64,000 nucleotides of DNA, taken from positions 94,710 to 158,709 of the IMG/VR virus record IMGVR_UViG_3300021399_000109; one strand, 5' to 3'. The notes beneath the pieces are model-generated. The model made no database searches. It was not told the origin of the DNA and was given only the letters and a program-made list of their open reading frames with translations. The position numbers and the translations under genes were made by a program. This document shows positions 2,618-55,527 of this stretch, piece by piece (position 1 is the first letter of the stretch; every line of letters begins with the position of its first letter). The stretch comes from a virus. Lineage: Duplodnaviria > Heunggongvirae > Uroviricota > Caudoviricetes.

Positions 2618-2893
2618 ATGACAGGATTTACTTTTAGATTAGGAAGAAAAGATGTTTTTGTAGAAACTACAGCAAAAAACAAAACAAAAAAATTAGCAGA
2701 AAAAATTCTCTATAAATTAGAGTTGCCAGTAAATCCTGATACAATTAGCGAGGTGCTTTACTGGTTAATGAAAGCTAATTGTGAGATTAAAACGCTCAAT
2801 AATGGCAGACAGTATTATGATATTTATGGAAACAATTTTGGAGGATACGGCAGTTTTCTTGATGACGGTATGACCATTTTAATAAAAGTATAA
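2618..2893 (+). CDS. hypothetical early protein
   Basis: RBS AAAAAGGAGATAAAAAAATG. Terminator follows at 2898-2927. Confidence 0.5.
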   Translation: MTGFTFRLGRKDVFVETTAKNKTKKLAEKILYKLELPVNPDTISEVLYWLMKANCEIKTLNNGRQYYDIYGNNFGGYGSFLDDGMTILIKV

Positions 2894-2940
2894 ATAAAAA
2901 AGGGGAAACCCTTTTTTATTTTTTTATATTTTATTATTTC

Positions 2941-3017
2941 AATTGTTAAAAACAATAATTAATCAATAATAGTTTTTAACAATTAAAAAAAATAAATAAA
3001 AAACAAGTTGTTAAAAA
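2941..3017. repeat. same motif family, 3 copies
   Basis: Copies at 2941, 2972(rc) and 3005. Confidence 0.8.
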
Positions 3018-3137
3018 CAATATTTTAAAACAAAAAATTTTTTAAAAAAAATAAAAAAAGTATTGACAATTAAATAAAACTGTTATATCATTAAAATACA
3101 AAAAAAACAACAAACAATAAACAAAAGGAGAAAAAAC

Positions 3138-3647
3138 ATGGTAAAACTTACAGTTAATGAAATGATTCTGAAAACCATTAGCACAAAACTTAATAAAGAG
3201 CCTAAATATAAAGAGATTCTTGAGACTATGGGATATACAATTTATGATTCAACATGGAGTGGCTATAATAATTGGACTGTTAGGAATGAAAAAACTAATA
3301 GGGAAATTGTTTTTAGCAGAGGATATGACGGTAGAAAACGTTTATATGATGGTTCTCGTAATATTAAAACTTATGATTTTAAAAAAGTAGATTATGCAGG
3401 ATATTTAAATTGTAAAAGAAAACCTTATAATCCATATTCTTCCACAAAAGAAAATAAATATTCAAAACTTAGATATGGTCTTAAACATACAAAAGAAATG
3501 ATTCAAATGGATAATAGATGTATTGAAAGTATTCAAAGTAAAATTGATAAATTATCTGACCGTTTAAATCATGAAATAGAGTGCAGAAATGAACGATTTA
3601 AACATTTAGAGAAAATTAGAAAAGAAATTAAGGAATTAAAAAAATAA
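3138..3647 (+). CDS. hypothetical early protein (169 aa, basic)
   Basis: RBS AAAAGGAGAAAAAACATG. Promoter at 3063-3091. Terminator at 3655-3686. Confidence 0.55.
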   Translation: MVKLTVNEMILKTISTKLNKEPKYKEILETMGYTIYDSTWSGYNNWTVRNEKTNREIVFSRGYDGRKRLYDGSRNIKTYDFKKVDYAGYLNCKRKPYNPYSSTKENKYSKLRYGLKHTKEMIQMDNRCIESIQSKIDKLSDRLNHEIECRNERFKHLEKIRKEIKELKK

Positions 3648-8255: not shown

Positions 8256-8267
8256 TTAATTATTAAA

Positions 8268-8377
8268 GTTTTTAACAACTAAAAAATATTAAAAAATTAG
8301 TTGTTAAAAACAATTTAATTAAAAAATAGTTTTTAACAACTAAAAAAATAAAAATAAAAAAATCAGTTGTTAAAAAC
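8268..8377. repeat. same motif family, 4 copies
   Basis: Copies at 8268(rc), 8300, 8329(rc) and 8365. Confidence 0.8.
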
Positions 8378-8509
8378 AATAAAATATAAAATAAAAAAAT
8401 AAATTAAAAAAAATACTTGACGGAATAAATAAAATGTGATACTATAAGACCATAGAAACAAACAGAAAAAAAACAAATTAATTATTAATTAAAGAAAAAA
8501 AGAAACACT

Positions 8510-9904: not shown

Positions 9905-9973
9905 CATATTCTAATTAAAATAGTAAAAGGATACCTGTATAGGTATCCTTTTACTTATTATTAATATATTTTA

Positions 9974-10146
9974 AATTGTTAAAAACAATATAATAATATT
10001 AAAAATATATTTTTTAAGTTGTTAAAAACTATTAGTTTTATTGTTTTAGTTTTTAACAACTATTTTTTAAGTTGTTAAAAACTTTTATTAATTAATCATT
10101 GTTTTTAACAACTAAAAAAATTAAAAAAAATTAAGTTGTTAAAAAC
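9974..10146. repeat. same motif family, 6 copies; last cluster before the family stops
   Basis: Copies at 9974, 10017, 10049(rc), 10067, 10099(rc) and 10134. Confidence 0.8.
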
Positions 10147-10256
10147 AATATAAATAATTTAAAAAAATATTTTTAATTTTATTATTGACAATAAAGATAA
10201 AATATGATATTGTAATTACAGAAACAAAAACAAATAAATAAACAAAGGAGAAAAAT

Positions 10257-11543: not shown

Positions 11544-12044
11544 ATGAAAACAAAAACAGGCTATAAACTCTTTAGACAGGATAAAAAAGGAAATCTTCAT
11601 CCTTTATACGTCTTTCGTAAAGATACTATTCCTGTAGGGGAATGGGTACTTGCAAAAGATAATCCCCCTATGACTGATAATGGCAAGGTTAAGGGTAAAA
11701 TGGAGTTACATTATAGAGCAGGTTTTCATGTTGCAGGACTTAGACCCTATGCTCCTCAGATTACTAATACAAATGGATGTGTATGGTGTAAAGTAGAATA
11801 TTGTGTTGACATTGATTACAATGAAGAAGCACAAAAAAACGGAACAAATAAAGATGGAAAAATTATTCCTATTAAATCCGAACTTGACAGATTACCTTAC
11901 ATGGGTTATTATTATTTTAAAACTTCTTGGAAACAGGAAGAGCCTTGGATTATATGTGACAGAATTAAAGTTACAGAAATTCTTAGTTGGGAAGAAGTAG
12001 ATAAATTAAATAAAGAATTTCTTGAAAAAACACTTGACAATTAA
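11544..12044 (+). CDS. hypothetical protein
   Basis: RBS AAAAGGAGTAAAAGAAAATATG. Promoter at 11467-11495. Confidence 0.5.
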   Translation: MKTKTGYKLFRQDKKGNLHPLYVFRKDTIPVGEWVLAKDNPPMTDNGKVKGKMELHYRAGFHVAGLRPYAPQITNTNGCVWCKVEYCVDIDYNEEAQKNGTNKDGKIIPIKSELDRLPYMGYYYFKTSWKQEEPWIICDRIKVTEILSWEEVDKLNKEFLEKTLDN

Positions 12045-14574: not shown

Positions 14575-15528
14575 ATGACAGGGAAAGAAGAAAAGGATTT
14601 AAAAGTATATAATGAAATTATGGGTATTATAGAAAAAAATAAAGAAAAAGATTATCTTTTAAATTTCTTTTATTTTCTTTCTGCAATGGCTATGCGTTCC
14701 GCAAAAGCATACCTACTGTATGTGATTAATTTTATTAATTATACTAATAAAACTCCAGAAAATTTAACTTTAAATGACTATACAGCTTATATGTTTTCTA
14801 TTAATGATAAAACATCAGCTTATAAAATAGCTGTATATTCTGCATTAAAAAAATTCTCTATTTTTTTAAAAATCAATGGAATTAATGATGCAAATCCAAT
14901 GGAATATGTTCATCGTCCTAAAGCTATTGAATCTCAAGCTACAAAACAAAAAAGAGAAATTGGTTATTTAAATAAAAAAGAAATTCAAATTTATTTAAAT
15001 AATGTAAATAATAAAAATAAAACTGTATGGGGTTGTAGGGATGCTTTAATTGTTTATCTGTTCTTAAATACAGGAATGCGTTGTTCAGCTTTGGAGCAAA
15101 TTAATGTTGAAGATATTGATTTTGAAAAAAAAGAATTAACAGTATATGAAAAAGAAGATAAAGTTATCACATATACTTTAAGTGATTCTTTAATAGAAAA
15201 AATTATTACTTGGCTCAATTATAGAAATAATATGAATTTAAAAACAAATGCTGTATTTGTGTCTAATCAATTAAATCGTATGTCTAATGTAAGTATTTAT
15301 AGAGTTATTAAAAAGTATGGTTTTAATATTGAAGGCAAAAAACTTTCCCCTCATAAGCTTAGAGCAACTTATGGTACTCAGCTTTATGACGCAACAAAAG
15401 ATATTGTTTTTGTTCAGAAAGCTATGAATCATAATAATTCTCATACCACTGAATTATATATTCGTGGTAAAGAAGATGTTGCCAGAAAACAGGCTTCAGA
15501 TATTATGGCAAAATTGACTTTTAATTAA
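14575..15528 (+). CDS. tyrosine site-specific recombinase (XerC/D or phage-integrase family)
   Basis: C-terminal HKLRATYGT (HxxR) and HNNSHTTELYI (catalytic Tyr), with SAM-like N-terminal domain organisation. Confidence 0.7.
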   Translation: MTGKEEKDLKVYNEIMGIIEKNKEKDYLLNFFYFLSAMAMRSAKAYLLYVINFINYTNKTPENLTLNDYTAYMFSINDKTSAYKIAVYSALKKFSIFLKINGINDANPMEYVHRPKAIESQATKQKREIGYLNKKEIQIYLNNVNNKNKTVWGCRDALIVYLFLNTGMRCSALEQINVEDIDFEKKELTVYEKEDKVITYTLSDSLIEKIITWLNYRNNMNLKTNAVFVSNQLNRMSNVSIYRVIKKYGFNIEGKKLSPHKLRATYGTQLYDATKDIVFVQKAMNHNNSHTTELYIRGKEDVARKQASDIMAKLTFN

Positions 15529-22583: not shown

Positions 22584-22617
22584 GTGAAATAGATAAAAAA
22601 ATTTTTTAAAAAAAAGC

Positions 22618-22646
22618 TTGACAAATTGTTAATTATGTGTTAGTAT
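22618..22646 (+). promoter_or_regulatory. sigma70-type promoter upstream of tRNA(TAA) and the TnpB/Cas12f-like gene
   Basis: TTGACA, 17-bp spacer, TAGTAT. Followed by hairpin TGTCAGATGAAGCGAAACATCTGACA at 22654-22679. Confidence 0.55.
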
Positions 22647-22685
22647 TAATAGTGTCAGATGAAGCGAAACATCTGACAATTATAT

Positions 22686-22849: not shown

Positions 22850-22891
22850 AAGTTTATAACAACAAAAACAAAAAGCAAAGAAAGGAGCAAT

Positions 22892-24247
22892 ATGTCAAAC
22901 ACACAAATTCTAACACGTAAATTTCAGATTTTTCCAGTAGGAGACAAAGAAGAGATTAATCGAGTTTATCAGTATATTAGAGATTGTCAGTATGTACAAA
23001 ACAAAGCTTATAATATTCTTATTAGTAATGTTTATTCTGCTATTATTTCTGGTAAATCAAAAGAAGAAATTAATCTGATTTATAAAAAAGGTGGAAGAAA
23101 ACCTAAAGAGAATAATCCAGATTATAGTCTTTATAATTATAATGATTTTAAAGTACCTGTAGGATTAACAATAATAGGGGCACTTCCTCAAACAGTAAAA
23201 AATGATTTAAAAACTGCTCAAAAGGCAGGATTATTTAAAGGTAACTCTGCTTTACCTAATAGAAGAAGAACGGCTAGTTTAAATATTCAACCTATATATG
23301 TTAGATTAAGAGATATTAATTTACGTAACCCTAAAATAACTTCTAAAACTGGTATTTATCATACCTATTCTTCTTATAATGATTTTTTAGATAATTTATA
23401 TTCTAAAAGAGAATTAGATATTTATCTTGCATTTGCGAATAATATTACTTTTAAATTTGTGTTAGGAAATCCTTATAAATCCTATCAAGATAGAAATATT
23501 TTACAGCATATTTTTGAAGAAGATTATTTAGTTAAGGGAAGTTCAATCTCTTTTGATAAGACTAATAAAAAAATTATGTTAAATCTGAGTATGGAAATAC
23601 CTAAAAAAGAGATTGAATTAAAAGAGGATGTCGTAGTAGGAGTTGATGTAGGATTAGCCATTCCTGCTGTTTGTGGATTAAATATAAATTCATATGCGAG
23701 AGAATACATTGGTTCTAAGGATGATTTTTTACGAGTTAGAACACAGATTTCTAATGAATGTAAAAGAGTTCAGAAGAATTTAAAAATGATTAAAGGTGGT
23801 CATGGACGTAAGAAAAAAATGAAACCTTTAGATAGATTCAGATTAAAAGAAAAAAATTTTGTTCAGACCTACAATCATATGGTCAGTAAACGTGTTGTTG
23901 ACTTTGCCGTAAAAAATCATGCAAAATATATTAATCTAGAAAATCTTAAAGGATATGATGCCAATATATTTATTTTAAGAAATTGGTCATATCATCAGCT
24001 TCAGCGGTATATTAAATACAAAGCTGAAAAATACGGAATAGAAACAAGAATGATTGACCCTTATCATACATCTCAGATTTGTTCTTGCTGTGGTCATTGG
24101 GAAGAAGGTCAAAGAATTAACCAATCAACTTTTATTTGTAAAAATCCTGAATGTAAAAATTTTGGAATAAAAATAAACGCTGATTTTAATGCTTCAAGGA
24201 ATATAGCATTATCTACAAATTTTATATCTGCCGATTCTGCCGAATAA
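22892..24247 (+). CDS. compact RNA-guided-nuclease-like protein (TnpB/Cas12f-like, 451 aa) with split RuvC and zinc finger
   Basis: RuvC-I VVVGVDVGLAIP. RuvC-II YINLENL. Zinc finger CSCCGHWEEGQRINQSTFICKNPEC. RuvC-III INADFNASRNIA. RBS AAAGAAAGGAGCAATATG. A CRISPR-like array lies 185 bp downstream. Confidence 0.8.
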   Translation: MSNTQILTRKFQIFPVGDKEEINRVYQYIRDCQYVQNKAYNILISNVYSAIISGKSKEEINLIYKKGGRKPKENNPDYSLYNYNDFKVPVGLTIIGALPQTVKNDLKTAQKAGLFKGNSALPNRRRTASLNIQPIYVRLRDINLRNPKITSKTGIYHTYSSYNDFLDNLYSKRELDIYLAFANNITFKFVLGNPYKSYQDRNILQHIFEEDYLVKGSSISFDKTNKKIMLNLSMEIPKKEIELKEDVVVGVDVGLAIPAVCGLNINSYAREYIGSKDDFLRVRTQISNECKRVQKNLKMIKGGHGRKKKMKPLDRFRLKEKNFVQTYNHMVSKRVVDFAVKNHAKYINLENLKGYDANIFILRNWSYHQLQRYIKYKAEKYGIETRMIDPYHTSQICSCCGHWEEGQRINQSTFICKNPECKNFGIKINADFNASRNIALSTNFISADSAE

Positions 24248-24370
24248 AATCGGCAAATATAAATAAATTATATAGAAATATATACGGCTTGCTTTGAAGC
24301 CGAAAGGTGAGGTTATTTTTATAATATAAAATTTATATTAGATATTTTTAATACTTAATATAAATAAAAT

Positions 24371-24397
24371 GACACTCACTAAAAACCTTGTAAAAAT
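24371..24397. ncRNA. candidate anti-repeat (tracrRNA-like) segment between the nuclease gene and the array
   Basis: ACTAAAAACCTTGTAAAAATAA contains AACCTTGT, complementary to ACAAGGTT of the repeat. It lies in a 185-bp ORF-free spacer that also has hairpins at 24230-24254 and 24285-24302. Confidence 0.3.
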
Positions 24398-24431
24398 AAA
24401 ATTATAAAAAATATATAATAATTTATTAAGG

Positions 24432-24730
24432 CTTTATAGTCTATAAAAATAATAAGGTTACAAAGGGATGATGCCATCTTCATGGCTTCTGGACTGGTTT
24501 TATAACCTATAAAAATAACAAGGTTACAAAGGAAGTGAGTCTTATGAATCTCAGGGCATAATGTTTTGTAGCTTATAAAAATAACAAGGTTACGAAGTAC
24601 AAATGGCTTAATATCACCATTTGTGAACAGTTTTATAGCCTATAAGAATAACAAGGTTACGAAGGTTATCCAGAATATATCCTTTGTATGTCTTAGTTTT
24701 ATAACCTATAAAAATAATAAGGTTACGAAA
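24432..24730. CRISPR. CRISPR-like mini-array: 5 repeats of 34 nt (consensus TTTTATAACCTATAAAAATAACAAGGTTACGAAG) and 4 unique spacers of 32-33 nt
   Basis: Repeats at 24432-24465, 24498-24531, 24564-24597, 24631-24664 and 24697-24730, with 1-5 substitutions each. Spacers at 24466-24497, 24532-24563, 24598-24630 and 24665-24696 are unrelated to each other. The repeat has an internal hairpin TTTTATA/TATAAAA. The R1 end is the most degenerate. An A-rich leader-like tract lies at 24731-24790. Confidence 0.75.
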
Positions 24731-24811
24731 AATTAATAAAAAATAAATAAACAAAAATAAAAAACGAAATAAATAAACATTAATCATTACAGAAAGGAGG
24801 TCACTTATGAG

Positions 24812-25033: not shown

Positions 25034-25717
25034 ATGACTACAGGAACAGCTTTAAATAATGTATTTACTACAACAAGTGATATATTTACTACAACTACAA
25101 TTAAGGATTATATAAATGATTGTATAATTAATACAACTACACCATTTAGTACGGAAGAATTTATATATGGATATAATCCAGATTTAAAACCTAGAATGTT
25201 TTATCAAGCTAAAAGAAAACAATATAAAGCAATTAGGTTTGGAAAGAATAAAGAAAATTCAATATACATTATGCCTGAATTTTCTGATGTTAAAATTATT
25301 AGAAATAAGGAAAATTCCCCTATTGGTGTAAAAATTAGTTTTACAGATGGTACTGAACAGAAAGCTATTTGTATGCCAGATGATACTTTTAGTTTAGAAC
25401 ATGGTATTACCATTTGTTTATTTAAAAAAATGCTTACTTGTGGTTGTTATATTGATGAACAGTATGTAACAGGTGTTTATAATAAACTTGTTAAACATGC
25501 TATTAAAGTTAGAGAAAACAGACTTAAAGCAGAAGAAGAAGCTAAGAAAGCTAAAGAAGAAGCCAAGCTTCAGGAACAGCGTTTCCAAGAAAAAAGACGT
25601 AAAACCAAAGCTAAACGTGCAAAACGTGCATCTGAACGCAGAATTAATGAAATGGCTGAAGCTATTCGAAGAAGCGGTATTGTTCCAAACATTGATAAAA
25701 TTGATGATGGAAAGTAA
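25034..25717 (+). CDS. hypothetical protein with Lys/Glu/Arg-rich C-terminal helix
   Basis: RBS AAAAGGAGTTAAAAATG. C-terminal KAEEEAKKAKEEAKLQEQRFQEKRRKTKAKRAKRA. Confidence 0.5.
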   Translation: MTTGTALNNVFTTTSDIFTTTTIKDYINDCIINTTTPFSTEEFIYGYNPDLKPRMFYQAKRKQYKAIRFGKNKENSIYIMPEFSDVKIIRNKENSPIGVKISFTDGTEQKAICMPDDTFSLEHGITICLFKKMLTCGCYIDEQYVTGVYNKLVKHAIKVRENRLKAEEEAKKAKEEAKLQEQRFQEKRRKTKAKRAKRASERRINEMAEAIRRSGIVPNIDKIDDGK

Positions 25718-25726
25718 AAAAAATAC

Positions 25727-25755
25727 TTGACAAAAGAATATATATATGTTACTAT
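25727..25755 (+). promoter_or_regulatory. sigma70-type promoter
   Basis: TTGACA, 17-bp spacer, TACTAT. Confidence 0.55.
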
Positions 25756-25811
25756 ATATATAGTAAATAATAAATCATAGATAATTAATAAAACAAAGGA
25801 GAAACAAAATT

Positions 25812-27867: not shown

Positions 27868-29067
27868 ATGTTAAGTTATATTGAACCAACAGATGACAAA
27901 GATTTAAATAAATTTAAATTATTTGAAAACCAATTAGTATCCGCAGGAGATTCACTCCTGCGGATACGTAAAAGGATTAGAATAATTAAAGATAATGATT
28001 CTAAAAGAAGAGGATACCTTTATCAATGTGAAAAATGTAATTATATAGGTATACGTAGAGAAGACCAATTAATAAAAGGAAATAATGGTTGTCCTGTATG
28101 TACTGGAAAAAAATGTAAATGGAATATTAATAGCGTAGCTGTAAAAAGACCAGATTTATTACCATTTTTTGTAAATATGGAAGACGCATATTTAAATACT
28201 ACAGGTAGTCATAATAAAGTTAATTTTTTATGTCCTAATTGTAAACAAAATGTTGGAGATAAAACTATTAAAAATGTAGTTAATTCTGGCATATCCTGTC
28301 CTTATTGTGGAGATGGAATCCCAATGGGGGAAAGAATATTTCAAACAGCTTGTGATTTAGCTAATATTAAATATGAACGGCAAAAAGAATTTCCATGGAG
28401 CGAAGGACATATATATGATTTTTATTTACCAGAACTAAATTATTTAGTAGAAATTAACGGACAGCAACATTATCCCATAGGGTCAAGTTTTGAAACTGTA
28501 AGTGGGCTGACTTATGAAGACCAACATAAAATTGATTTATTAAAAGAGAAATTAGCTTATAATAATGATATAAATGAAGTTATACAAATTTGTGCTTTCA
28601 ATTCTGATTTTAATAGTATACGCTGTGCTATTCAAGGTTGTATATATCTGGTTTTAAAAACCAATATATTTGACATAGATTGGCATAAATGTGAAGAAAT
28701 ATCTTCTCATTCAATGGTAAGAATTTGTGCAAATGAATGGAATAAAGGTTATGATGCTCCTTACATAGAAAGTAAATATCATTACAGTAGTTCTTCTATT
28801 AATAATTGGCTTACACAGGCTCAAAAAATTGGGTGGACTAAAGATTATAATAAAACTAATGCAGATTTAAGACGGGGCAAAAAAATTATTAATGTAAATG
28901 ATTTAAAATGTTATTGGTCTCCTGCTGATTTAGCTAAAAAAATAAATATTTCTTGGTCTAAAGCTTATAATTATGCTTCTAAACAGAAAGAAGGATACAT
29001 GTTTTTTGATTTATATTCTAATAATAATCATAATTTTTTTATGAAACATTTAACAGTAGATTCATAA
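27868..29067 (+). CDS. multi-zinc-ribbon protein with DUF559/Vsr-like PD-(D/E)xK endonuclease domain
   Basis: Four CxxC pairs in the N-terminal half. IYDFYLPELNYLVEINGQQHY fits the DUF559/Vsr-like endonuclease core. Confidence 0.5.
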   Translation: MLSYIEPTDDKDLNKFKLFENQLVSAGDSLLRIRKRIRIIKDNDSKRRGYLYQCEKCNYIGIRREDQLIKGNNGCPVCTGKKCKWNINSVAVKRPDLLPFFVNMEDAYLNTTGSHNKVNFLCPNCKQNVGDKTIKNVVNSGISCPYCGDGIPMGERIFQTACDLANIKYERQKEFPWSEGHIYDFYLPELNYLVEINGQQHYPIGSSFETVSGLTYEDQHKIDLLKEKLAYNNDINEVIQICAFNSDFNSIRCAIQGCIYLVLKTNIFDIDWHKCEEISSHSMVRICANEWNKGYDAPYIESKYHYSSSSINNWLTQAQKIGWTKDYNKTNADLRRGKKIINVNDLKCYWSPADLAKKINISWSKAYNYASKQKEGYMFFDLYSNNNHNFFMKHLTVDS

Positions 29068-35837: not shown

Positions 35838-36833
35838 ATGAATGAAGCAATTTTAAAACCATATATAAGGGCAGTAGACCCAAAAAAAGATAAAGACTTA
35901 CCAGTTTATTCTCACAGTGGAATTGAACAGTATTTGAATTGTCCTTATGCTTTTAATTTAAAATATAATGAGGATAAAAAGACGGATGATACAACATTAG
36001 CTTTAGAATTAGGGTCATTATTACATAAGATTTTAGAAATTAAAGGTCATTGGGTGCATTTAGGTATTGACATTGACTATGATATGTTGTATAATACAAT
36101 AGAAGTCGGTTATGAAGAGAAAGATGAAAAGACGCAAGAAAAATTAAGAGGTATCAAAGCTTTAAAACGTTCTTATTTTGATGATTGGTATGCAAGAGAT
36201 AATGCGTCAGGAATGACATATGAAGATAAAATAAAATTATTTAAAGCAACTGTTCTTAAAAATGAAATGGCAAACAGTAAATGGAAACCAGTTTATTTTG
36301 AATTACCATTTGAGTTTGTTTGGAATAACAGATGTATTATACACGGCTTTATAGACCGTGTTGATATAAAGGATGGTGAGTTTAGAGTTGTAGATTATAA
36401 AACAAGTAAAAAGGTTTTTGATGATGCAAAAGTTAAAACCAGTCAACAGTTTGGAATTTATGCTTGTGCTATTTTAAATATGTTTGGGAAACTGCCTATA
36501 GAATATGAATATGATTTTATTCTTTTAAATCAAACACAGCAAGCTATGTCAAAAGGTTGGGAAAAGCGTTTTATTAAGAAGATTGAGAAAGCTTTAGATA
36601 GCATTGATAAAAGTAATGCCACTAAAGTATTTAATCCTAAACCCTGTCCTTTATGTTATTGGTGTAATTATTGTACTACAAATCCCAATGCTAAAGAATA
36701 CAAAGATGAATGCGATTATTATAGTTTGTGGACACCGACAGAAAAAAAGTTTTCTGTGAATAAGGAATTTAATATTTTAGAATACAAAAAACAAAAAGAA
36801 GAACCTAAAGAAAAGCGTAAAATTATTTTTTAA
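35838..36833 (+). CDS. PD-(D/E)xK exonuclease with C-terminal Cys4 cluster (Cas4/RecB-like)
   Basis: IHGFIDRVDI...VVDYKTSKK nuclease core. C-terminal CPLCYWCNYC. Confidence 0.7.
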   Translation: MNEAILKPYIRAVDPKKDKDLPVYSHSGIEQYLNCPYAFNLKYNEDKKTDDTTLALELGSLLHKILEIKGHWVHLGIDIDYDMLYNTIEVGYEEKDEKTQEKLRGIKALKRSYFDDWYARDNASGMTYEDKIKLFKATVLKNEMANSKWKPVYFELPFEFVWNNRCIIHGFIDRVDIKDGEFRVVDYKTSKKVFDDAKVKTSQQFGIYACAILNMFGKLPIEYEYDFILLNQTQQAMSKGWEKRFIKKIEKALDSIDKSNATKVFNPKPCPLCYWCNYCTTNPNAKEYKDECDYYSLWTPTEKKFSVNKEFNILEYKKQKEEPKEKRKIIF

Positions 36834-37697: not shown

Positions 37698-40205
37698 ATG
37701 AGTTACATTGGGATACATAATCATACGGATATTGGTAGTAATCATGAGTTCCGTGATTCAATTAATAAAGTAAAAGATTTAATTGATTATGCACATTCGC
37801 TTGGACATAAGGGTATTTGCATAACTGACCATGAATCTTTATCTGCTCATTTTAAAGCTTTAGATTATTATGAATCTAAAATGGGCGAAGAAGATTGGAA
37901 AGATTTTAAAATTGGATTAGGAAATGAAATTTATTTATGTCCTGATTTTGTTACAGCAGAAAATATAGGGAATAATTTTTATCCCCACTTTATTTTAATT
38001 GCTCTTGATGCTTTTGGGCATAAAGGATTACGTGAATTAAGTACAAAAGCATGGACTGAAAATTGTTTTTATTCTAAATGGAATAGAGTTCCTACTTATT
38101 ATAATGATTTGGCTGAAATGTTAGATGTGTATAGAGGACATATTATTGGGTCAACAGCCTGTCTTGGGTCTAGCATTAATAGACAATTACTTCAATATAA
38201 AGAAAATCCTTCAGAAGATATAGTTGTGCGTATTCGTCAATGGTTAGCATTTATGGTTGATATTTTTGGAGAAGAAAATTTCTTTATTGAACTTCAGCCC
38301 AATCCTAGTGAAGAACAGGTTTTTTGTAATCAAAAATTACTTGAATTTGCACAGGAATATAATCTTCCTTATATTATTTCTACTGATGCACACTATCTTA
38401 AAAAAGAAGATAGAGCAATTCATAAGGCTTATATTACAGCAAACAAAGAAGATGACAGAGAAGTGGATTATTTTTATCAGACTACTTATGTAATGTCAGA
38501 AGAAGAAATTCATTCTTATATGGATGGGTATTTAGGCTATGATATTGTCCAAAAAGGTATTGATAATACAATGCTTATTTATGATAGACTTGAATATTAC
38601 TCCATGAAAAAGGATTTGGAAATTCCTTTTCTTCCGCTTGATAGAACTGAACCTGATAAAAAATTAATAGATAAATATAGTAAACATATTCCTTTATTAC
38701 GAGAATTTGCTGAATCTGAATACGAATCTGATAGACATATGATTCGTGAAATGCTCAAAGGTATTGAAAAAGATGAAGTATATCAAACAGAAAGAGGATA
38801 TAACGCTACCAATGAATGTTTATCTTATATAAAACAATCTTCTGAAAAAATGGGAGTTAGATGGTCAGCATATCTTGACCAAATGGCAGATTACGTTAAT
38901 ATTATTTGGGATTGCGGTAGTGTTGTAGCTGTAGGTCGTGGTTCTGTTATTGGTTTTTGTATTGCTAATCAAATGGGAATCACACAGATTAATCCTTTAA
39001 GAGAAAATACAGCTACATTTCCTTGGAGATTCTTAAATCCAGAACGGGCAAGTATACTTGATATTGATACAGATGTTAATCCTATTTTTAGAGATAAGAT
39101 TATAAATAGATTTAAAGAAATTTATGGTGCTGATAAAGTATCCAAAGTTCTTACTTATTCTACTGAAAAAAGTAGGAGTGCTATATTAACGGCAGGTCGT
39201 GGTATTGGACTTGATAATGATTTAACTTCTTATATTGCTTCTTTGGTAGTGTTTGATAGAGGTAATCCTCGTTCATTAAAAACAATGTACTATGGTGACG
39301 AAGATAACAAACCTGTTCAAGAGTTTGTCAATGAAATGAATGAGCATCCTGACCTTTGGGAAACTGCCCAAAAACTGGAAGGTCTTTGTTCAGGTATTGG
39401 TTCTCATGCAGGTGGGGTTATTATTTGTGATAAATCGTTAATTGATACTTGTGCGTTAATTCGAACTAAATCTGGGGATGTAATTACTCAATATGACCTC
39501 CATGAAGATGAAGCAATGAGTCTTATCAAGATTGACCTCTTAGCTACTAATGCAGTATCTAAGATTCAAGAGTGTCTGGAACTGTTATTAGATAAAAGTA
39601 AGATTGAATGGCAAGGTAGTCTTCGTGATACATATGAAAAATATATTGGTGTATATAATCTTGAAAGATATGCTGAAGATATGTGGAAATTGTTATGGGA
39701 ACATAAAGTTATTAGTGCTTTCCAAATGGAAAAAGAATCAGGAAAACAAGCATTAGCTTTAGTTAAACCACATTCTGTAGATGACTTAGCGACTATTAAT
39801 TCTGTTATACGACTTATGCCGCAGGAAAAAGGGGCTGAAACTCCATTAAGTAAATTTGCAAGATTCCATGAAGATATTACCGAATGGTATCAAGAAATGA
39901 CAGATTATGGATTAACAGAAGAGGAACAGAATATTCTTAAAAATATTATTGGTGTTTCGTATGGTATTTGCGAAGCACAAGAATATTTAGTTCTTTTAAC
40001 AACACATCCTGATATAGGTGGTTTTAGTTTATCTTGGGCAGACTCTTTACGTAAAGCTGTTGCAAAAAAGAATCCTAAAGCATTTGATGAATTAGAAAAA
40101 CAGTTTTTTGAAAATGCGGTTGAAAAAGGATTAAGTAAGAATTTAGTTAATTATGTTTGGAATGTATTAATTAAAACTCAGCGTGGGTACGGGTTAAATC
40201 TTTAA
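37698..40205 (+). CDS. dnaE: DNA polymerase III alpha-type (DnaE-like) polymerase, N-terminal portion (PHP, palm, fingers), interrupted
   Basis: PHP motifs GIHNHTDIGS...H. The ORF ends ...QRGYGLNL* inside the conserved GYxFNKSH region. The continuation is at 41326. Confidence 0.8.
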   Translation: MSYIGIHNHTDIGSNHEFRDSINKVKDLIDYAHSLGHKGICITDHESLSAHFKALDYYESKMGEEDWKDFKIGLGNEIYLCPDFVTAENIGNNFYPHFILIALDAFGHKGLRELSTKAWTENCFYSKWNRVPTYYNDLAEMLDVYRGHIIGSTACLGSSINRQLLQYKENPSEDIVVRIRQWLAFMVDIFGEENFFIELQPNPSEEQVFCNQKLLEFAQEYNLPYIISTDAHYLKKEDRAIHKAYITANKEDDREVDYFYQTTYVMSEEEIHSYMDGYLGYDIVQKGIDNTMLIYDRLEYYSMKKDLEIPFLPLDRTEPDKKLIDKYSKHIPLLREFAESEYESDRHMIREMLKGIEKDEVYQTERGYNATNECLSYIKQSSEKMGVRWSAYLDQMADYVNIIWDCGSVVAVGRGSVIGFCIANQMGITQINPLRENTATFPWRFLNPERASILDIDTDVNPIFRDKIINRFKEIYGADKVSKVLTYSTEKSRSAILTAGRGIGLDNDLTSYIASLVVFDRGNPRSLKTMYYGDEDNKPVQEFVNEMNEHPDLWETAQKLEGLCSGIGSHAGGVIICDKSLIDTCALIRTKSGDVITQYDLHEDEAMSLIKIDLLATNAVSKIQECLELLLDKSKIEWQGSLRDTYEKYIGVYNLERYAEDMWKLLWEHKVISAFQMEKESGKQALALVKPHSVDDLATINSVIRLMPQEKGAETPLSKFARFHEDITEWYQEMTDYGLTEEEQNILKNIIGVSYGICEAQEYLVLLTTHPDIGGFSLSWADSLRKAVAKKNPKAFDELEKQFFENAVEKGLSKNLVNYVWNVLIKTQRGYGLNL

Positions 40206-41343
40206 TTAGACCCTCTTATACAGTAATGTATATTAAAAAACTCTTTAAATTGCGGGAAACTCCTTAGAGCATTAGTAACCAAGTTTAATTAGTAATAATT
40301 AAATGGCAAATAGTAATGTATTTGGTAAGGTAACAGCACTAATGATTGGACAATCCGCATCAAAATCTCTCAAACAAATTGTATAGAAATGGAGGGAAAA
40401 TGGGATGTAAAAGATTAAGTGATGAAGACGAAAAAAAACTTGTGGACGAATATTTAAAAGGTGTTGCTGTTAAACAATTAATGATTAAATATGGTTTTGC
40501 AAGTAAAAAGTCTATAATAGATAAAGTAAAGAAGTATTATCCAAATTATAAAGAGATGTTAGAACAGGCTAAAGAAAATCGAAAAACATATTCATTAGAT
40601 TTATCAAAAATTGATAGTCCATTTAATGCGTATCTTATTGGATTATTATTAACAGATGGCTATATTATTGATAATAATAAATTTGGTTTGCAATTAACAG
40701 ATGAAGATTGTATTCGATTTATTTCTGAAGCAACTAATAATCCATATTATTCGTATAAAACAAAAGAATATAAAACAGAATATAGAATTGTATTTAGTGG
40801 CTCTCAATATATTGAGCAATTAAAAAGATATAATATTACTGCGAAAAAATCATATACTGTTAAAGGATTTGATTTTTATGAGGACGAAATTAAATATATC
40901 CCTTTTTTAATTCGTGGAATTATTGATGGGGACGGATGTATTCATAAAACTACTAAAGGAAGTGTAAGTTTTTATATTTGTTCAATGTCTTATGACTTTA
41001 TTTTATGGATACAAGAAATATTGGAAAAACGGTTTTTTATGGAAGATACTCATATAAAACAAAGTAATATAAATAATATTTGGATAGTTGAAACTTCTTT
41101 ACAAACTAATATTTTTAAATTAATGGCAATTGTTTATGACAGACCTTATGGTATGTCTCGTAAATATAATTGTTTGAGAGAGATGTTCAGAGACTATAAT
41201 AAGAGTAACCAACAAAATTTTATTTGGAATGATGTTGGTTAATGGTATAGTCCAGACCGCAACCTTAACAGGGCTTGGGAAACCAAGTGCGGTAAAGTAA
41301 TAAGTCCCATACACTTGCTTATTCAATGATTCTTTTGCAAGAA
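40203..41343 (+). mobile_element. 1.14-kb insertion carrying a LAGLIDADG homing-endonuclease gene (group I intron-like or free-standing HEG cassette) splitting dnaE; flanked by 9-bp direct repeat TTAAATCTT
   Basis: TTAAATCTT at 40194-40202 and 41344-41352. Removing the segment plus one repeat copy restores an in-frame ...RGYGLNLNYRWNPIYWQTANL... The flanks are GC-richer and structured (paired segments AATTGCGGG/CCGCAT and ACCGCA...TGCGGT, TAGTCC after the HEG). Confidence 0.6.
40400..41242 (+). CDS. LAGLIDADG homing endonuclease (two-motif type)
   Basis: Two LAGLIDADG motifs, AYLIGLLLTDGYI and FLIRGIIDGDGCI. RBS-like AATGGAGGGAAAATGGGATG. Confidence 0.75.
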   Translation: MGCKRLSDEDEKKLVDEYLKGVAVKQLMIKYGFASKKSIIDKVKKYYPNYKEMLEQAKENRKTYSLDLSKIDSPFNAYLIGLLLTDGYIIDNNKFGLQLTDEDCIRFISEATNNPYYSYKTKEYKTEYRIVFSGSQYIEQLKRYNITAKKSYTVKGFDFYEDEIKYIPFLIRGIIDGDGCIHKTTKGSVSFYICSMSYDFILWIQEILEKRFFMEDTHIKQSNINNIWIVETSLQTNIFKLMAIVYDRPYGMSRKYNCLREMFRDYNKSNQQNFIWNDVG

Positions 41344-42720
41344 TTAAATCTTAATTATAGATGGAATCCTATTTATTGGCAAACAGCTAATCTTATTGTA
41401 GATTCTGGTTCGTTGGACAATAATTCAAATGATGCTACAGATTATGGCAAGATAGGTATTGCGATTGCAAATATTAAAAAAGAAAATGTTAATATTGAAA
41501 TTCCATTAATTAATGAAGCAGGATTTGGTTTTGAACCCGATGAAAATAATAACAGAATTATTTTTGGCTTAAAAGCAATAAATGGAATCAACACTGAAAT
41601 TTCACAAGCAATTATTCAAAACCGTCCATATAGTTCCATGGAAGATTTTGCAAGTAAACTTTTAGATACTGGAATTATTAAAAATGCTCAAATGATTAAA
41701 CTAATTAAAGCAGGTTGTTTTACTGAACTTCATAGTCCTAATAAAGAGATTACAATGGAATGGTATTTAAGAAATTATAAATATAATCCACTTAAAAAAT
41801 TAACACTAAGTCAGTTACCTGCTTTAAGAGAGAAAAAACTTATTCCAGAAGCTTTTGACAAGTGTGTCAAGATATTAATTTTAAAAGATTACATCTTAGA
41901 CGATGAAGGATTTTATGCTAATTATATTGACCCTAATAAGAAACCTTTAAAACGTGGTTATCATGATAGATATTATATTTTAGATGATAATAGTCAACCT
42001 ATTTTTAAAGATTATTTTTCTGAGAATTGTATAGTTGGAGTACAAGGGGAATATTTTTTAGTTTCAGAAAAACAGATTGATAAAGAAGCCAAAGTATTTA
42101 TAGAACCTTTCAGAGAGTGGATGAATAGTGCTGATGCTATTAATAGATATAATTTAAGTTGTTTCTTAGATGTATGGGAACAATATGCAAGTGGAAATAA
42201 AGCACATTGGTCTATGGAGTCTTTGACTTATTATGACGAAGAACACGAATTAGAAAATGTAAACGAATCTTTATATGGAATAGTTAACTTCTTTGATTTA
42301 CCTGAAGAACCTGTAGCGTATGATTGGTATACAAGATGGATTAACGGTGAAAGAAAAGTATTTCCTAAATATAATATTAGTCGTATAGCAGGTACAGTGA
42401 TTAATGCAGATAATAATCATCATATGGTATCTTTATTAACTAAATATGGATTAGTTAATGTAAAAATGAATAAAGGACATTATGCCTTTTATAATAAACA
42501 GATTTCTCAAATTGATGAAGATAATAAAAATAAAAAACATAAAATAGAAGATAGTTGGCTTAAACGTGGTCAGATGATTATTGTTTCTGGCATTAGAATG
42601 GGGGATACTTTTTATCCCAGAATTTATAATGATACAATTTATAAACATACAGTTAGTTTAATTAAAGAAGTTAATAAAAATGGAACTTTATTATTACAAA
42701 ATGAAAGGACAAAAATATAA
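41326..42720 (+). CDS. dnaE: DnaE-like polymerase, C-terminal portion
   Basis: Begins MILLQELNLNYRWNPIYWQTANL, which overlaps the LNL at the end of the N-portion and matches the ...AYALxAYQTAYLK region of PolIII alpha. Confidence 0.7.
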   Translation: MILLQELNLNYRWNPIYWQTANLIVDSGSLDNNSNDATDYGKIGIAIANIKKENVNIEIPLINEAGFGFEPDENNNRIIFGLKAINGINTEISQAIIQNRPYSSMEDFASKLLDTGIIKNAQMIKLIKAGCFTELHSPNKEITMEWYLRNYKYNPLKKLTLSQLPALREKKLIPEAFDKCVKILILKDYILDDEGFYANYIDPNKKPLKRGYHDRYYILDDNSQPIFKDYFSENCIVGVQGEYFLVSEKQIDKEAKVFIEPFREWMNSADAINRYNLSCFLDVWEQYASGNKAHWSMESLTYYDEEHELENVNESLYGIVNFFDLPEEPVAYDWYTRWINGERKVFPKYNISRIAGTVINADNNHHMVSLLTKYGLVNVKMNKGHYAFYNKQISQIDEDNKNKKHKIEDSWLKRGQMIIVSGIRMGDTFYPRIYNDTIYKHTVSLIKEVNKNGTLLLQNERTKI

Positions 42721-47017: not shown

Positions 47018-47605
47018 ATGTTATTAATTATTGGTGGAAAATCTGGTTCTGGAAAAGATAGTATTGTTAAAGAATTTGAGAAAAATGGTTGGAAAAAAAT
47101 TATTAAATACACTAATAGACCTAAAAGAGAGGGCGAAATTGATGGAGTAGATTATCATTTCGTATCCACTGAACTTATGGAAATAATACCTTTTATTTTT
47201 AAACAATCTTTTGTAGTAGCAAATGGTGATACATGGTATTATGGTTTTCCTATGGAACACATAATACTTCCCGATAATAAAAATGATAAATATATAACAA
47301 TTATGACTCCATTTGAATATAATAGTTTTCTTAATATGACAAAGGAGTTTAAAATAATAGGAAAAGATTTTATTTCCGTACAGATTGATATTCCAGATAA
47401 CATACGAAGAGAGCGTTTAATTAAGCGTGGAGATAATATAGAAGAAATTAATAGAAGAATTAAAGCAGATAACAAAGATTTTGAAGGATGGGAACTAAAA
47501 CATAGAAAAGAAAGTCAATTTCCTTTATTTTATATTCGTGATGGAATAGGAGATAGAACTCCTGAAGATATATATAATACAATTATTAAAATGATGGAAT
47601 CATAG
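47018..47605 (+). CDS. P-loop nucleotide (dNMP/guanylate-type) kinase
   Basis: N-terminal P-loop LLIIGGKSGSGKDS. About 195 aa. Sits in the nucleotide-metabolism module. Confidence 0.5.
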   Translation: MLLIIGGKSGSGKDSIVKEFEKNGWKKIIKYTNRPKREGEIDGVDYHFVSTELMEIIPFIFKQSFVVANGDTWYYGFPMEHIILPDNKNDKYITIMTPFEYNSFLNMTKEFKIIGKDFISVQIDIPDNIRRERLIKRGDNIEEINRRIKADNKDFEGWELKHRKESQFPLFYIRDGIGDRTPEDIYNTIIKMMES

Positions 47606-52709: not shown

Positions 52710-53596
52710 TGGGTAGCGGAAGTTATAGTAAAGACGATTTTATAAGTTATACTAGTGCGACAAAACGTGATGCAATTTTTGATAGTTTAGGAAGGATTAC
52801 CAATAGTTATTCTGAACAAGATGTTTTTAAACAGACTAATCTTTCTTCTACATTAAATCCTTATAATGTTATGCGTGAATGTTGTGACACGGAAGAGCAT
52901 CCTAACACAATTCCTGTAATTCTTGCTCTTGATGTTACTGGTTCTATGGGTTCTGCTTCTCTTGAAGTAGCTAAAAGTCTTAATGTGATTATGGAGAATT
53001 TATATAAGAATATTAAAGACATTGAATTTTGTATTATGGGGATTGGTGATATGGCTTATGACCGTTGCCCTGTTCAAATGTCTCAGTTTGAATCTGATAT
53101 TCGTATTGCAGAAAATGTAGATGCTATCTATCATGAACATGGTGGTGGGGGCAATTCCTATGAATCTTATTCTTTGGCATGGTATATGGGATTACATCAT
53201 ACTAGTCTTGATTGTTGGAAACGTAATAAAAAGGGTATTATTATTACATTAGGAGATGAGAATCTTAACCCTTATATTCCAGTAGTTGGTTATAAAACTA
53301 CGATTGAAAGATATATGGGAGATGATGTTCAAGGAACAATTGAAACCAAAGACCTTTATGAAGAAGCATCCAAAAAATTTGATATTTATCATATTCATGT
53401 AAATCATTCTCATAGTAGTAATATGAGAGAGAAAGACGCTGTTACTACTTTCGGTGATGTTATTGGGGCAGATAAGGTTAAAGTTGCTACATTAGAAACA
53501 TTACCTGATACTATTGTAGATATTATTGTAAATGCTAGTGATAATAATTATGTTGCACCTGAAAATAATTCTAGTGGGGGTATTGCTTGGGTATGA
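52709..53596 (+). CDS. von Willebrand factor A (vWA) domain protein
   Basis: MIDAS-like LDVTGSMGS. Confidence 0.55.
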   Translation: MGSGSYSKDDFISYTSATKRDAIFDSLGRITNSYSEQDVFKQTNLSSTLNPYNVMRECCDTEEHPNTIPVILALDVTGSMGSASLEVAKSLNVIMENLYKNIKDIEFCIMGIGDMAYDRCPVQMSQFESDIRIAENVDAIYHEHGGGGNSYESYSLAWYMGLHHTSLDCWKRNKKGIIITLGDENLNPYIPVVGYKTTIERYMGDDVQGTIETKDLYEEASKKFDIYHIHVNHSHSSNMREKDAVTTFGDVIGADKVKVATLETLPDTIVDIIVNASDNNYVAPENNSSGGIAWV

Positions 53597-54837: not shown

Positions 54838-55103
54838 AAAAGAAAGAAACGATTTATGTAATTCCTGCACATATCCTTGAAAAATATGCAAAAGCATATT
54901 ACTTGGTAGAAGCTATGAATGAGGATGGGATTTTTGATAATCTGGGGGATAGTTTTATTATTGATTATATTGATAATAATTTCCCTGATAAAGATTACAA
55001 TGACCTTGATGACGTAGTAAAACATGAAGATATGCTTTACTGGAAATCTATCAATGCTAAAGATTGTTATGAAAGAGAAGATAAAAAGAAAGGGAGTAAA
55101 TAA
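54834..55103 (+). CDS. hypothetical acidic protein
   Basis: Overlapping start. RBS GGAGAACAAATG. Confidence 0.4.
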   Translation: MKKKETIYVIPAHILEKYAKAYYLVEAMNEDGIFDNLGDSFIIDYIDNNFPDKDYNDLDDVVKHEDMLYWKSINAKDCYEREDKKKGSK

Positions 55104-55104
55104 T

Positions 55105-55527
55105 ATGATTAAAATGAATATTTCACTTGATAAAGGGGCTTTTCTTCCAGAAAGAAAGCATCCTACAGATGCAGGTTATGATTTAAAAACACCTTTTGAT
55201 TTTTCTATTGCTATGAATAGTAGAATGTTTATTAACACAGGAGTTCATGTAGAACTTCCTCCTAATACGGTAGGTATGATTAAATCTCGTTCAGGGCTTA
55301 ATAAAAATTCTGGTATCCAATGCGAGGGAGTAATTGATGAGAATTATAGAGGAGCAATTGGGATTGTCCTTTATAATCATTCTAATGAACCTGTTGTATT
55401 TAAGAAAGGTGATAGAATTGGTCAGCTTGTGATTCTTCCTTGTATTTATACTGAACTAACAGTTGTCGATGAATTAACGGATACTGATAGAGGTGAAGGC
55501 GGTTTTGGTAGTACGGGAGTAAGTTGA
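55105..55527 (+). CDS. dut: dUTPase (trimeric dUTPase/dCTP-deaminase fold)
   Basis: KHPTDAGYDL and SRSGL motifs. RBS AAGGGAGTAAATAATATG. Internal start chosen over the ORF-track 55024. Confidence 0.7.
   Translation: MIKMNISLDKGAFLPERKHPTDAGYDLKTPFDFSIAMNSRMFINTGVHVELPPNTVGMIKSRSGLNKNSGIQCEGVIDENYRGAIGIVLYNHSNEPVVFKKGDRIGQLVILPCIYTELTVVDELTDTDRGEGGFGSTGVS

Follow-up and report, generated by a model that had tools for sequence, protein, structure and literature searches.

A putative type V-F1 Cas12f cassette with its own guide RNAs in a phage genome of about 159 kb

The window analyzed here, a stretch of 64 kb of phage DNA (positions 94,710 to 158,709 of the IMG/VR virus record IMGVR_UViG_3300021399_000109), contains an open reading frame (ORF) for a protein of 451 aa, cas12f, which is followed on the same strand by a CRISPR array. 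We propose that the ORF, the array and a trans-activating CRISPR RNA (tracrRNA) encoded between them form a self-contained type V-F1 Cas12f cassette of ~1.9 kb, which would be an accessory module of a phage of ~159 kb. A probability of about 0.8 is assigned to this proposal including its mechanism and role, and the molecular identity of the protein together with the guide-RNA model is regarded as likely correct. The locus is real, its parts are well formed, and judging from the sequence it is probably functional. Its kind is known, as the effector type, the missing adaptation module and the location in a phage have all been reported before.

An earlier note on the same DNA had described a compact phage-carried RNA-guided nuclease of the RuvC/TnpB superfamily with its own CRISPR array. 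The predictions presented here agree with that description, and the ORF and the five-repeat array are both present and not due to chance. The note had considered the protein not identifiable by name; PADLOC, sequence matches in the PDB and Foldseek name it Cas12f1 / V-U3. The suggested intermediate between TnpB and a CRISPR effector gave way to a canonical V-F1 layout (cas12f, tracrRNA, array) with a split guide RNA and covariation. Because this layout is known and V-U/V-F systems have been reported from phages, the locus represents neither a new effector nor such an intermediate.

The Cas12f protein and its affiliation

The catalytic core listed in the earlier note was found in full. The RuvC motifs lie at residues 250 (GVDVG with D252, RuvC-I), 349 (LENL with E350, RuvC-II) and 430 (ADFNASRNI with D431, RuvC-III), and the zinc finger is the zinc ribbon of Cas12f (TNB domain), consisting of C397-x2-C400 (CSCCG at 397) and C416-x4-C421 (CKNPEC at 416). 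These motifs align with those of CnCas12f1, and in an alignment of 32 homologues D252, E350, D431, C397, C400 and C421 are invariant. Because the catalytic and zinc residues are invariant in the family alignment, the nuclease with its intact RuvC site is predicted to be active. The identical protein is encoded by an intact ORF on 11 public contigs. With 451 aa it is smaller than CasPhi and in the size range of Cas12f and TnpB, as had been stated.

The PADLOC profile Cas12u3 matches the protein over its full length (residues 9-447 vs profile positions 5-394 of 398, E 1.9e-103), and so does the V-F Cas12f model PDLC01699 (E 4.7e-100). The Pfam domain Cas12f1-like_TNB was found above its cut-off. 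The Cas12f2 model of NCBIfam stays below its cut-off (110.9 vs 450), which is expected for a different subgroup. The best match in the PDB (phmmer) is CnCas12f1 (8HR5, E 2.4e-76), followed by Al3Cas12f (9NZO and 9NZR, 3.8e-66) and RhCas12f (9NZP, 3.2e-63), the 9NZx entries being identified as Al3Cas12f and RhCas12f in PMC13186708. AsCas12f (~1e-37) and Un1Cas12f1 (~1e-26) come next, and ISDra2 TnpB reaches only 4e-3.

A further hint arises from the predicted fold. The AlphaFold2 model, calculated with 32 homologues, has a mean predicted local distance difference test score (pLDDT) of 83.7. In a Foldseek comparison with the PDB ranks 1-21 are all occupied by Cas12f chains (E 1e-32 to 1e-17) with CnCas12f1 as the best; TnpB appears from rank 22 (3.6e-15, 1.8e-12), along with Cas12p (8.4e-13), CasLambda (9.5e-9) and CasPhi (1.9e-7). 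The template modelling (TM) scores are only ~0.5, since the free model arranges its domains differently from the complexes. The comparison by profiles and structure, which the earlier note had proposed as a check, favors Cas12f and puts TnpB, CasPhi and CasLambda far lower. On the basis of sequence and modelled fold the protein is predicted to be a full-length member of Cas12f1 / type V-F1 (former V-U3), and all defining features of V-F1 (V-U3 branch) that can be tested computationally were observed in sequence, predicted fold and layout.

Alternatively, the protein could be an ordinary TnpB of the IS200/IS605 type, with a downstream omega RNA that directs cutting at the empty donor site, in which case the array would be incidental. 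The best curated match in NCBIfam is indeed the generic guided_TnpB subfamily (8.5e-49), and homologues are labelled “transposase” or “TnpB”. The NCBIfam models for IS200 and IS607 TnpB, however, reach only 4e-12 and 1e-7, compared to 1e-103 for the Cas12u3/Cas12f profiles, and Foldseek places every Cas12f above every TnpB. TnpB of IS200/IS605 elements resembles the window system in its RuvC and zinc-ribbon core, in a structured RNA directly 3' of the ORF and in a scaffold ending in a pseudoknot beside the guide. Such elements are bounded by left and right ends (LE/RE), often come with a TnpA Y1 transposase and have a single guide that is fused to the scaffold at the right end. In the window, by contrast, the guide is split into a tracrRNA and CRISPR RNAs (crRNAs) from a repeat-spacer array, and neither TnpA (among the matches listed) nor the ends of an insertion sequence (IS) were found; the system was therefore not assigned to the TnpB-omega RNA elements.

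With CnCas12f1 of Clostridium novyi and the V-U3 branch (AsCas12f, SpCas12f1, RhCas12f1, Al3Cas12f) the window protein has full-length homology. The likeness to this branch extends to the size class (415-506 aa), the tri-split RuvC, the zinc ribbon, a similar repeat length and period, and the order of gene, tracrRNA and array without cas1, cas2 or cas4 (PMC7229846); V-U3 systems were described to have no adaptation module and a layout of nuclease gene, putative tracrRNA and array (Karvelis 2020, PMC7229846). Compared to CnCas12f1 the window protein is ~34% identical (structural alignment) with an N-terminal half that is weakly similar in sequence, the system is located in a phage of ~159 kb and not in a bacterial chromosome, and stem 2 of its tracrRNA carries an AT-rich insertion of 60 nt.

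Phage variants of V-U / V-F without Cas1, Cas2 and Cas4 were reported by Al-Shayeb 2020 (PMC7162821), and surveys list Cas12f-clade proteins adjoining arrays in soil and oral huge phages (PMC11748809, PMC12297358). These Cas14-like systems of huge phages likewise combine a miniature Cas12f-type effector with a small array in a phage, have no Cas1, Cas2 or Cas4 and keep the catalytic residues. The window phage differs by its genome below 200 kb (158,921-nt contig), and the analyses of tracrRNA, frozen array and insertion or deletion are specific to the present work. The missing cas1, cas2 and cas4, which the earlier note had treated as a special trait, are the norm for V-U3 (PMC7229846) and for phage CRISPR systems (PMC7162821).

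CasPhi (Cas12j), CasLambda (Cas12l) and Cas12p (“Cas12 hacker”) are type V systems with a single effector that phages likewise encode; their arrays are small, adaptation genes are missing, and they are presumed to act against rival DNA. CasPhi and CasLambda comprise ~700-800 aa and use crRNAs alone, which the effector itself processes, so that they need no tracrRNA, whereas the window system has a predicted one; in view of this and of the Foldseek values given above the protein was placed in neither family. The PADLOC model for Cas12j matches over 25 residues only (E 8e-4). Cas12p differs by its 500-700 aa and its need for host thioredoxin (bioRxiv 10.1101/2025.01.20.633832).

The tracrRNA and the CRISPR array

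The stop codon of cas12f and the first repeat are separated by 183 nt (185 bp according to the earlier note), and this gap is 96% conserved in sister phages. A tracrRNA gene in the gap had been missed and was found by covariation across relatives. In relatives of 42-60% identity a common architecture occurs, namely stem-loop 1, a short purine linker, stem 2, UAAAA and a segment complementary to the repeat of the same locus (Table 1). Stem 2 in the window contains a 60-nt AT-rich lineage-specific insertion; in the relatives its loop varies from 6 to ~60 nt.

To judge the scaffold we counted paired cells and compensatory changes. In ten loci all cells of the 12 modelled pairs are standard, and 7 out of the 12 pairs are compensatory; 0 out of 500 shuffles reach the observed values, and slid controls do not exceed 43% paired. 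From these ten loci a covariance model was derived, which recovered 195 scaffold copies in 78 sources, without exception on the gene's strand, and in the 64-kb window a single match (24281-24391, 55.8 bits, E 1.9e-14). In 82 distinct scaffold sequences 98.5% of the cells are paired and 9 out of 12 pairs are compensatory, while one must keep in mind that this alignment was fitted to the covariance model, which favors the structure. Stem-loop 1 is paired in 100% of the cells of the ten loci (5 out of 6 pairs compensatory) and in 98.9% of those of the 82 sequences. The arms of stem 2 covary as well, with the outer pair changing from GC to UA, AU or GU (98.2% paired). No family in Rfam matches the tracrRNA region.

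In all loci examined, the loop of stem-loop 1 complements the 3'-terminal 5-6 nt of the repeat (GCTTTG-CAAAG in the window; ACTTCA-TGAAGT, GTTTGA-TCAAAC and ATTTTG-CAAAA elsewhere). For this pseudoknot 6 out of 6 pairs are compensatory and 90.6% of the cells paired, compared to at most 57% in slid controls; the register was picked by eye, which inflates the pair count somewhat. A pseudoknot of this kind was described for the guide RNAs of Cas12 and TnpB alike (bioRxiv 10.1101/2025.01.20.633832).

In 7 out of 10 loci the distance from CACTCA to the start of the anti-repeat is the same, and the anti-repeat tracks the repeat of its own locus. The duplex energies of cognate tracrRNA and repeat sum up to -184 kcal/mol vs -103 +/- 8 kcal/mol for 37,006 derangements (minimum -136). 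In the window the pairing joins AACCTTGT (24384-24391) to repeat positions 22-29 (ACAAGGTT), and TTATAAAA (24402-24409) to repeat positions 2-9 (TTTTATAA). Covariation thus supports the prediction that the 183-nt gap encodes a tracrRNA which pairs with the crRNA. The position of its scaffold directly after the ORF resembles that of an omega RNA and to this extent would also suit a TnpB. A perfect 8-bp hairpin (TGCCGATT … AATCGGCA) at 24229-24255 (+) spans the stop codon of cas12f and is kept in close sister phages. It might represent a transcript-end or processing signal, or a 5' extension of the tracrRNA.

Table 1. Positions of the predicted cassette elements within the window.
Feature	Position	Strand	Remarks
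promoter-like site (putative)	22618-22646	+	TTGACA, 17 nt, TGTTAGTAT, extended -10; 5' of tRNA-Leu
ribosome-binding site AAGGAG	22882-22887	+	4 nt 5' of the cas12f ATG; read from sequence
cas12f	22892-24247	+	451-aa ORF; predicted type V-F1 / V-U3 effector
candidate tracrRNA gene	24281-24411	+	scaffold start to anti-repeat end; covariance model
tracrRNA stem-loop 1	24285-24302	+	CGGCTT GCTTTG AAGCCG
loop of stem-loop 1, CTTTG	24292-24296	+	predicted pseudoknot with the repeat 3' tail CAAAG
tracrRNA stem 2	24307-24379	+	arms GTGAGG (24307-24312) and CACTCAC (24373-24379)
alternative anti-repeat	24311-24333	+	repeat-complementary stretch within the stem-2 insertion
anti-repeat	24384-24409	+	two 8-bp helices with the repeat
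CRISPR array	24431-24731	+	five 36-nt repeats, four spacers; repeat-then-spacer
repeats (starts)	24431, 24497, 24563, 24630, 24696	+	direct, period 66-67 nt
spacers 1-4	24467-24496, 24533-24562, 24599-24629, 24666-24695	+	30-31 nt

The repeat unit of 36 nt, GTTTTATAACCTATAAAAATAACAAGGTTACAAAGG, was judged against sister phages with perfect repeats. The number of five repeats given in the earlier note remains; its 34-nt repeats and 32-33-nt spacers become 36 nt and 30-31 nt, which is a matter of boundary placement only. A 12-nt core of the repeat, with one mismatch allowed, matches six times in the 64 kb (five times in the array and once by chance) vs 0.76 times expected. The repeat is thus no satellite spread over the genome, and each of the four spacers occurs only once in the window, as had been claimed. 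The final repeat ends in a degenerate tail (…ACGAAAA), which all sister phages show too. Because of this degenerate terminal repeat and the tracrRNA pairing, the predicted orientation of the array has its leader on the tracrRNA side.

The array is identical, including its repeat substitutions, in five independent assemblies encoding the identical protein; in one assembly a single base of spacer 4 is changed and the remaining array is unchanged. New spacers are not being acquired in the window lineage. Sister phages with a 97-98% identical effector have the same repeat and wholly different spacers, with one spacer common to two sister phages at two mismatches. Because such close sisters carry other spacers, spacer sets appear to be replaced on a scale of a few per cent (2-3%) of protein divergence, with the window lineage holding a frozen set of four guides. 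Identical arrays in five samples and replaced spacers in the sisters point to a rare exchange of whole arrays and not to continuous acquisition.

The 14 spacers of four phages have a mean GC content of 43% compared to 28% for 30-mers of the phages, a value reached in 0 out of 50,000 resamples; the four spacers of the window alone have a mean of 36% (p ~0.05). As the spacer GC lies far above that of the phage 30-mers, the spacers seem to derive from DNA unlike these phages. The search for their targets, suggested in the earlier note, was run against phage and plasmid collections and led to no protospacer. The array gave chance matches of 23-40 nt only in GenBank phages and PLSDB plasmids (blastn “distant” mode, E up to 10), and spacers 1-4 as 22-24-nt seeds had no matches in IMG/VR. 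The sole match of spacer 1 in JGI/ENA metagenome contigs (L088) is no target but another copy of this phage and its array, and the spacer shared by the sister phages was found in IMG/VR only in its two source arrays. For all 14 spacers (four of the window and ten of the sister phages), a comparison allowing up to 6-7 mismatches with the window and with the 2 Mb of the 179 loci fetched led back to the arrays only.

Relatives and phage surroundings

In IMG/VR, relatives of the Cas12f were found on at least 179 stretches. Arrays with a period of ~66 nt adjoin the gene in 7 out of the 7 IMG/VR relatives first fetched (42-98% identity) and in 68 out of 80 further viral loci. Most relatives from bacterial assemblies (Lachnospiraceae, Ruminococcus, Treponema, Bacteroidales) possess arrays too, and the bacterial loci missed by the array script carry two-repeat or long-period arrays. 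Among 108 neighbor ORFs of 17 related loci none of Cas1, Cas2, Cas4 and Y1 transposase recurs; methylases, ligases, phosphoesterases and integrases were found as neighbors. From these sequences the clade appears to be associated with CRISPR and not with a transposon. We also considered the labels “TnpB” and “transposase” (Roseburia, RhCas12f) as a sign of transposon TnpBs and rejected this, as the labels are generic annotations: RhCas12f is a characterized Cas12f (PMC13186708), and the Roseburia locus is a predicted provirus with tracrRNA-like modules.

Some relatives show several modules in tandem, each composed of a tracrRNA scaffold and 1-3 repeats, with up to five modules around one cas12f. 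Five were found in L162 (2200-5200; IMG/VR 3300045988_130749), and L096, L097, L146, L148, L150 and L165 are further loci of this kind. Each module, those of L162 included, has its own matching pair of stem-loop-1 loop and repeat tail, e.g. TTTCG/CGAAA, CTTTG/CAAAG and TTTCA/TGAAA within one locus. In L010 (11290-11400, equal to L110 4297-4400, a provirus of Roseburia sp. 1XD42-69) and in L111 (4403-4480) one hairpin, ATTATGTT-AATT-AAACATAAT-ACAAAAG, unites the anti-repeat with a single repeat; unique sequence comes directly after it, and there is no array. The protein has 55% identity. This fused hairpin looks like a natural single-guide or omega-RNA-like form inside the same clade. No published description of the multi-module or fused-hairpin architecture was found, which, the literature coverage being incomplete, is weak evidence of novelty.

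Two observations on individual relatives may be added. Approximately 450 nt 3' of a two-repeat mini-array, after a small ORF, L009 has an orphan second tracrRNA-like scaffold (11740-11790; GCAGCC…GGGGCTGAAAGTTGAG…CTCAAC). In L003, a 90%-identical sister phage, the interval between tracrRNA and array contains an insertion of ~375 nt (2840-3215). Its three forward “AATGACACTAAAG” and three inverted “CTTTAGTGT” units suggest a small palindromic element or one resembling a miniature inverted-repeat transposable element (MITE).

The window is phage DNA with a GC content of ~28%. It encodes a split DNA polymerase of the PolIII-alpha type, DnaB-like and RecD/Dda-like helicases and a Sak4-like annealing protein; genes for NrdD/NrdG, RNA ligase and dUTPase are present as well, as are those for tail fibre proteins and for an endolysin that has CW_7 repeats. 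The longest contigs with the identical Cas12f have 158,921, 158,218 and 154,113 nt, so the genome of ~159 kb is below the 200-kb threshold for “huge” phages. Megablast of the locus against GenBank phages gave no match at the DNA level. The earlier note had placed the locus in a virulent-looking phage next to a cluster of transfer RNA (tRNA) genes. Phage genes and nine tRNA genes (17.8-22.8 kb of the window) agree with the location, whilst a tyrosine recombinase at 14575-15528 leaves the “virulent-looking” part in doubt.

In the distant phage relatives L173-L175 the order of the flanking genes is kept and cas12f is absent. Common to them and the window are orf75, promoter, tRNA-Leu, palindrome, orf61, orf227, a YorF-like ORF and Sak4, and in L175 only 335 nt separate orf75 and orf61. 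Because related phages share the flanks without cas12f, the segment ~22863-24735 (cas12f, tracrRNA and array) is interpreted as an accessory module, an insertion or deletion difference in an AT-rich intergenic spacer. Inverted ends or a target duplication are not evident at its boundaries. L174 shows a separate peculiarity. Its tRNA-Leu(UAA) gene is split in the region of the anticodon arm by ~410 nt (~1830-2240), with the tRNA halves flanking the insertion in an alignment with the window and L175; this insertion is possibly a group I intron.

The presence or absence of the cassette among related phages and the fused, omega-like single guide of L010/L110 are what an ordinary TnpB element might also lead one to expect. 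Against such an element argue the five-repeat array with spacers replaced between sister phages, the lack of TnpA or Y1 transposase among the matches listed for the window and of their recurrence in the 17 related loci, and the lack of IS ends, the palindrome 5' of the cassette being present in the cassette-less phages as well. In the fetched stretches of the cassette-less relatives, none of the spacers has a counterpart at the empty site. We regard the TnpB explanation as largely refuted and highly improbable; the clustering with ordinary IS605 TnpB with IS ends, which the earlier note had named as evidence against its own reading, was not observed.

The promoter-like site of Table 1 is the best consensus match in the region (10 out of 12 positions plus TG) and is conserved in related phages without the cassette. 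As no terminator on the + strand was found between it and cas12f, it probably drives tRNA-Leu and cas12f, which would then be co-transcribed. A second promoter-like copy with TTGACA and extended -10 was noticed; the two copies (22608-22651 with TGTTAGTAT, 25717-25760 with TGTTACTAT) enclose the tRNA-Leu/cas12f cassette together with the operon that comes next.

Cas1, Cas2 and Cas4 are absent among the PADLOC matches listed for 81 ORFs of the window (best 25 of 53 families), in agreement with the earlier note. A PD-(D/E)XK nuclease at 35838-36833 (+) reaches 22.8 bits with Cas_Cas4 of Pfam (threshold 22.7 bits). We rejected it as a Cas4, since it belongs to a replication/recombination module 11 kb away and PDDEXK_1 matches far better (1e-25), and regard it as a nuclease of recombination, though it may conceivably take part in spacer uptake in the manner of a Cas4.

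Further genes of the window are mentioned here as observations in their own right. A 416-aa homologue of adenylosuccinate synthetase is encoded at 53587-54837 (+) (phrog_1211, E 1e-43; Pfam Adenylsucc_synt, 4e-23). The family phrog_1211 is of the PurZ type (“2-aminooxy adenylosuccinate synthetase”), and PurZ in a phage would suggest that 2-aminoadenine (Z) replaces adenine in the genome. Nearby are a guanylate kinase (47018-47605) and a dUTPase (55024-55527), and neither DatZ nor MazZ was recognized among the scanned neighbors. The polymerase is divided into two ORFs (37698-40205 and 41326-42720, +) with a LAGLIDADG homing-endonuclease-like ORF between them (40346-41242), which looks like the insertion of an intron or of a free-standing homing endonuclease. 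Directly after the Sak4-like gene a 399-aa HNH/homing-endonuclease-related protein is encoded (27868-29067, +; phrog_4538, phrog_559). In the AT-rich intergenic DNA at 8267-8391 and 9964-10149 the palindrome (A)GTTGTTAAAAACAA(C)T occurs 2-4 times with a spacing of 43-66 nt; these clusters may be operator or iteron-like sites and are unrelated to the CRISPR repeat.

Proposed mechanism and role

According to the proposed mechanism cas12f would be expressed, probably together with the tRNA-Leu 5' of it, and the tracrRNA would be made from the 183-nt gap. With the array transcribed from the same strand, the repeat could meet the tracrRNA at two places, both pairings being supported by covariation: the repeat tail CAAAG would form the pseudoknot with the loop of stem-loop 1, and the repeat body would pair with the 3' anti-repeat. 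A host RNase may then trim the duplex, and Cas12f may bind to it, in analogy to solved relatives, as an asymmetric homodimer with one guide RNA. As in characterized homologues the complex should cut double-stranded DNA matching the spacer beside a 5' protospacer-adjacent motif (PAM) with D252, E350 and D431 of RuvC. Exchange of spacer sets in the wider group would presumably be accomplished by host Cas1-Cas2 in trans or by recombination. Most likely, the system would serve to break down DNA that competing mobile elements, or the host, have in the same cell.

Several points weigh against this proposal. The canonical anti-repeat of the window forms two 8-bp helices only (-11.7 kcal/mol), while the alternative anti-repeat reaches -21.1 kcal/mol with the cognate repeat and -9 to -13.5 kcal/mol with foreign repeats. 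The exact pairing of tracrRNA and repeat in this phage is ambiguous, the stronger stretch lying inside the stem-2 insertion. In the databases searched no protospacer was found for any spacer, from which a role or a PAM could have been derived. The PADLOC and Pfam scans of many ORFs contain the best 25 families only, and a very weak match to Cas1 or Cas2 could lie outside of these. Finally, 4 out of the 5 repeats of the window lineage carry 3-5 substitutions, compared to perfect repeats in the sister phages, and together with the frozen array this could mean slow decay and not use.

The last point leads to a decaying, non-functional CRISPR remnant that hitch-hikes in the phage lineage. The substituted repeats, an array without gain or loss in five assemblies, the searches without targets and the weak canonical anti-repeat pairing are all in agreement with it. 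Against a remnant speak an intact ORF that is identical on 11 contigs with all catalytic and zinc residues, and a tracrRNA scaffold that is 96% conserved and reaches 55.8 bits. At the tracrRNA-paired positions of the four guide-bearing repeats 7 out of 8 substitutions are A-to-G or C-to-T and keep a G.U pair; this is a weak count and only suggestive, as the A9-to-G change may be ancestral. The one-base change in spacer 4 of one assembly, with the rest of the array unchanged, also counts against decay. A remnant is therefore considered improbable.

As to the role of an active Cas12f cassette, an attack on rival mobile DNA or the host has a chance slightly short of even. A different purpose would be regulation or takeover of the host, with the four guides binding or cutting chromosomal sites of the host, as proposed for some arrays of huge phages that target host genes of transcription and translation. 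As precedents, Al-Shayeb 2020 (PMC7162821) reports spacers of phages that are directed at genes of the host, and also a “dCas14” case. Spacers far more GC-rich than the phage are expected if they stem from conserved genes of an AT-rich host, and a guide set fixed across samples is less suited to an arms race than to a hard-wired target. The intact RuvC site makes binding without cutting unexpected, though, and the entirely different spacers of the sister phages fit variable enemies better than a conserved host gene. We consider host takeover rather unlikely, if less so than decay.

Our knowledge of type V systems is not changed by this locus. Possibly less well known may be the abundance of the clade in IMG/VR phages, the frozen array and the module features of the relatives. 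In practical terms, a complete natural Cas12f system of ~1.9 kb with a protein of 451 aa and a computed guide-RNA architecture is a candidate for a compact editor, in which tracrRNA and repeat could be joined as a single-guide RNA.

For the wider family a more far-reaching interpretation is conceivable, which we hold to be somewhat doubtful: the relatives would form a large, mainly phage-borne and, to judge from the literature found, barely described Cas12f lineage, with a portable “tracrRNA plus mini-array” module as the unit of evolution, which in some cases has been reduced to one repeat only or to the fused tracr-repeat hairpin. If this were true, phages would document both directions of the “RNA splitting” between omega RNA and tracrRNA/crRNA within one protein clade, and they would use small hard-wired guide sets and not adaptive immunity. 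Independently of this interpretation, the window phage is a clean case of a mid-sized, not huge, phage with a fixed guide set as an accessory cassette, and of the persistence of phage CRISPR without adaptation genes.

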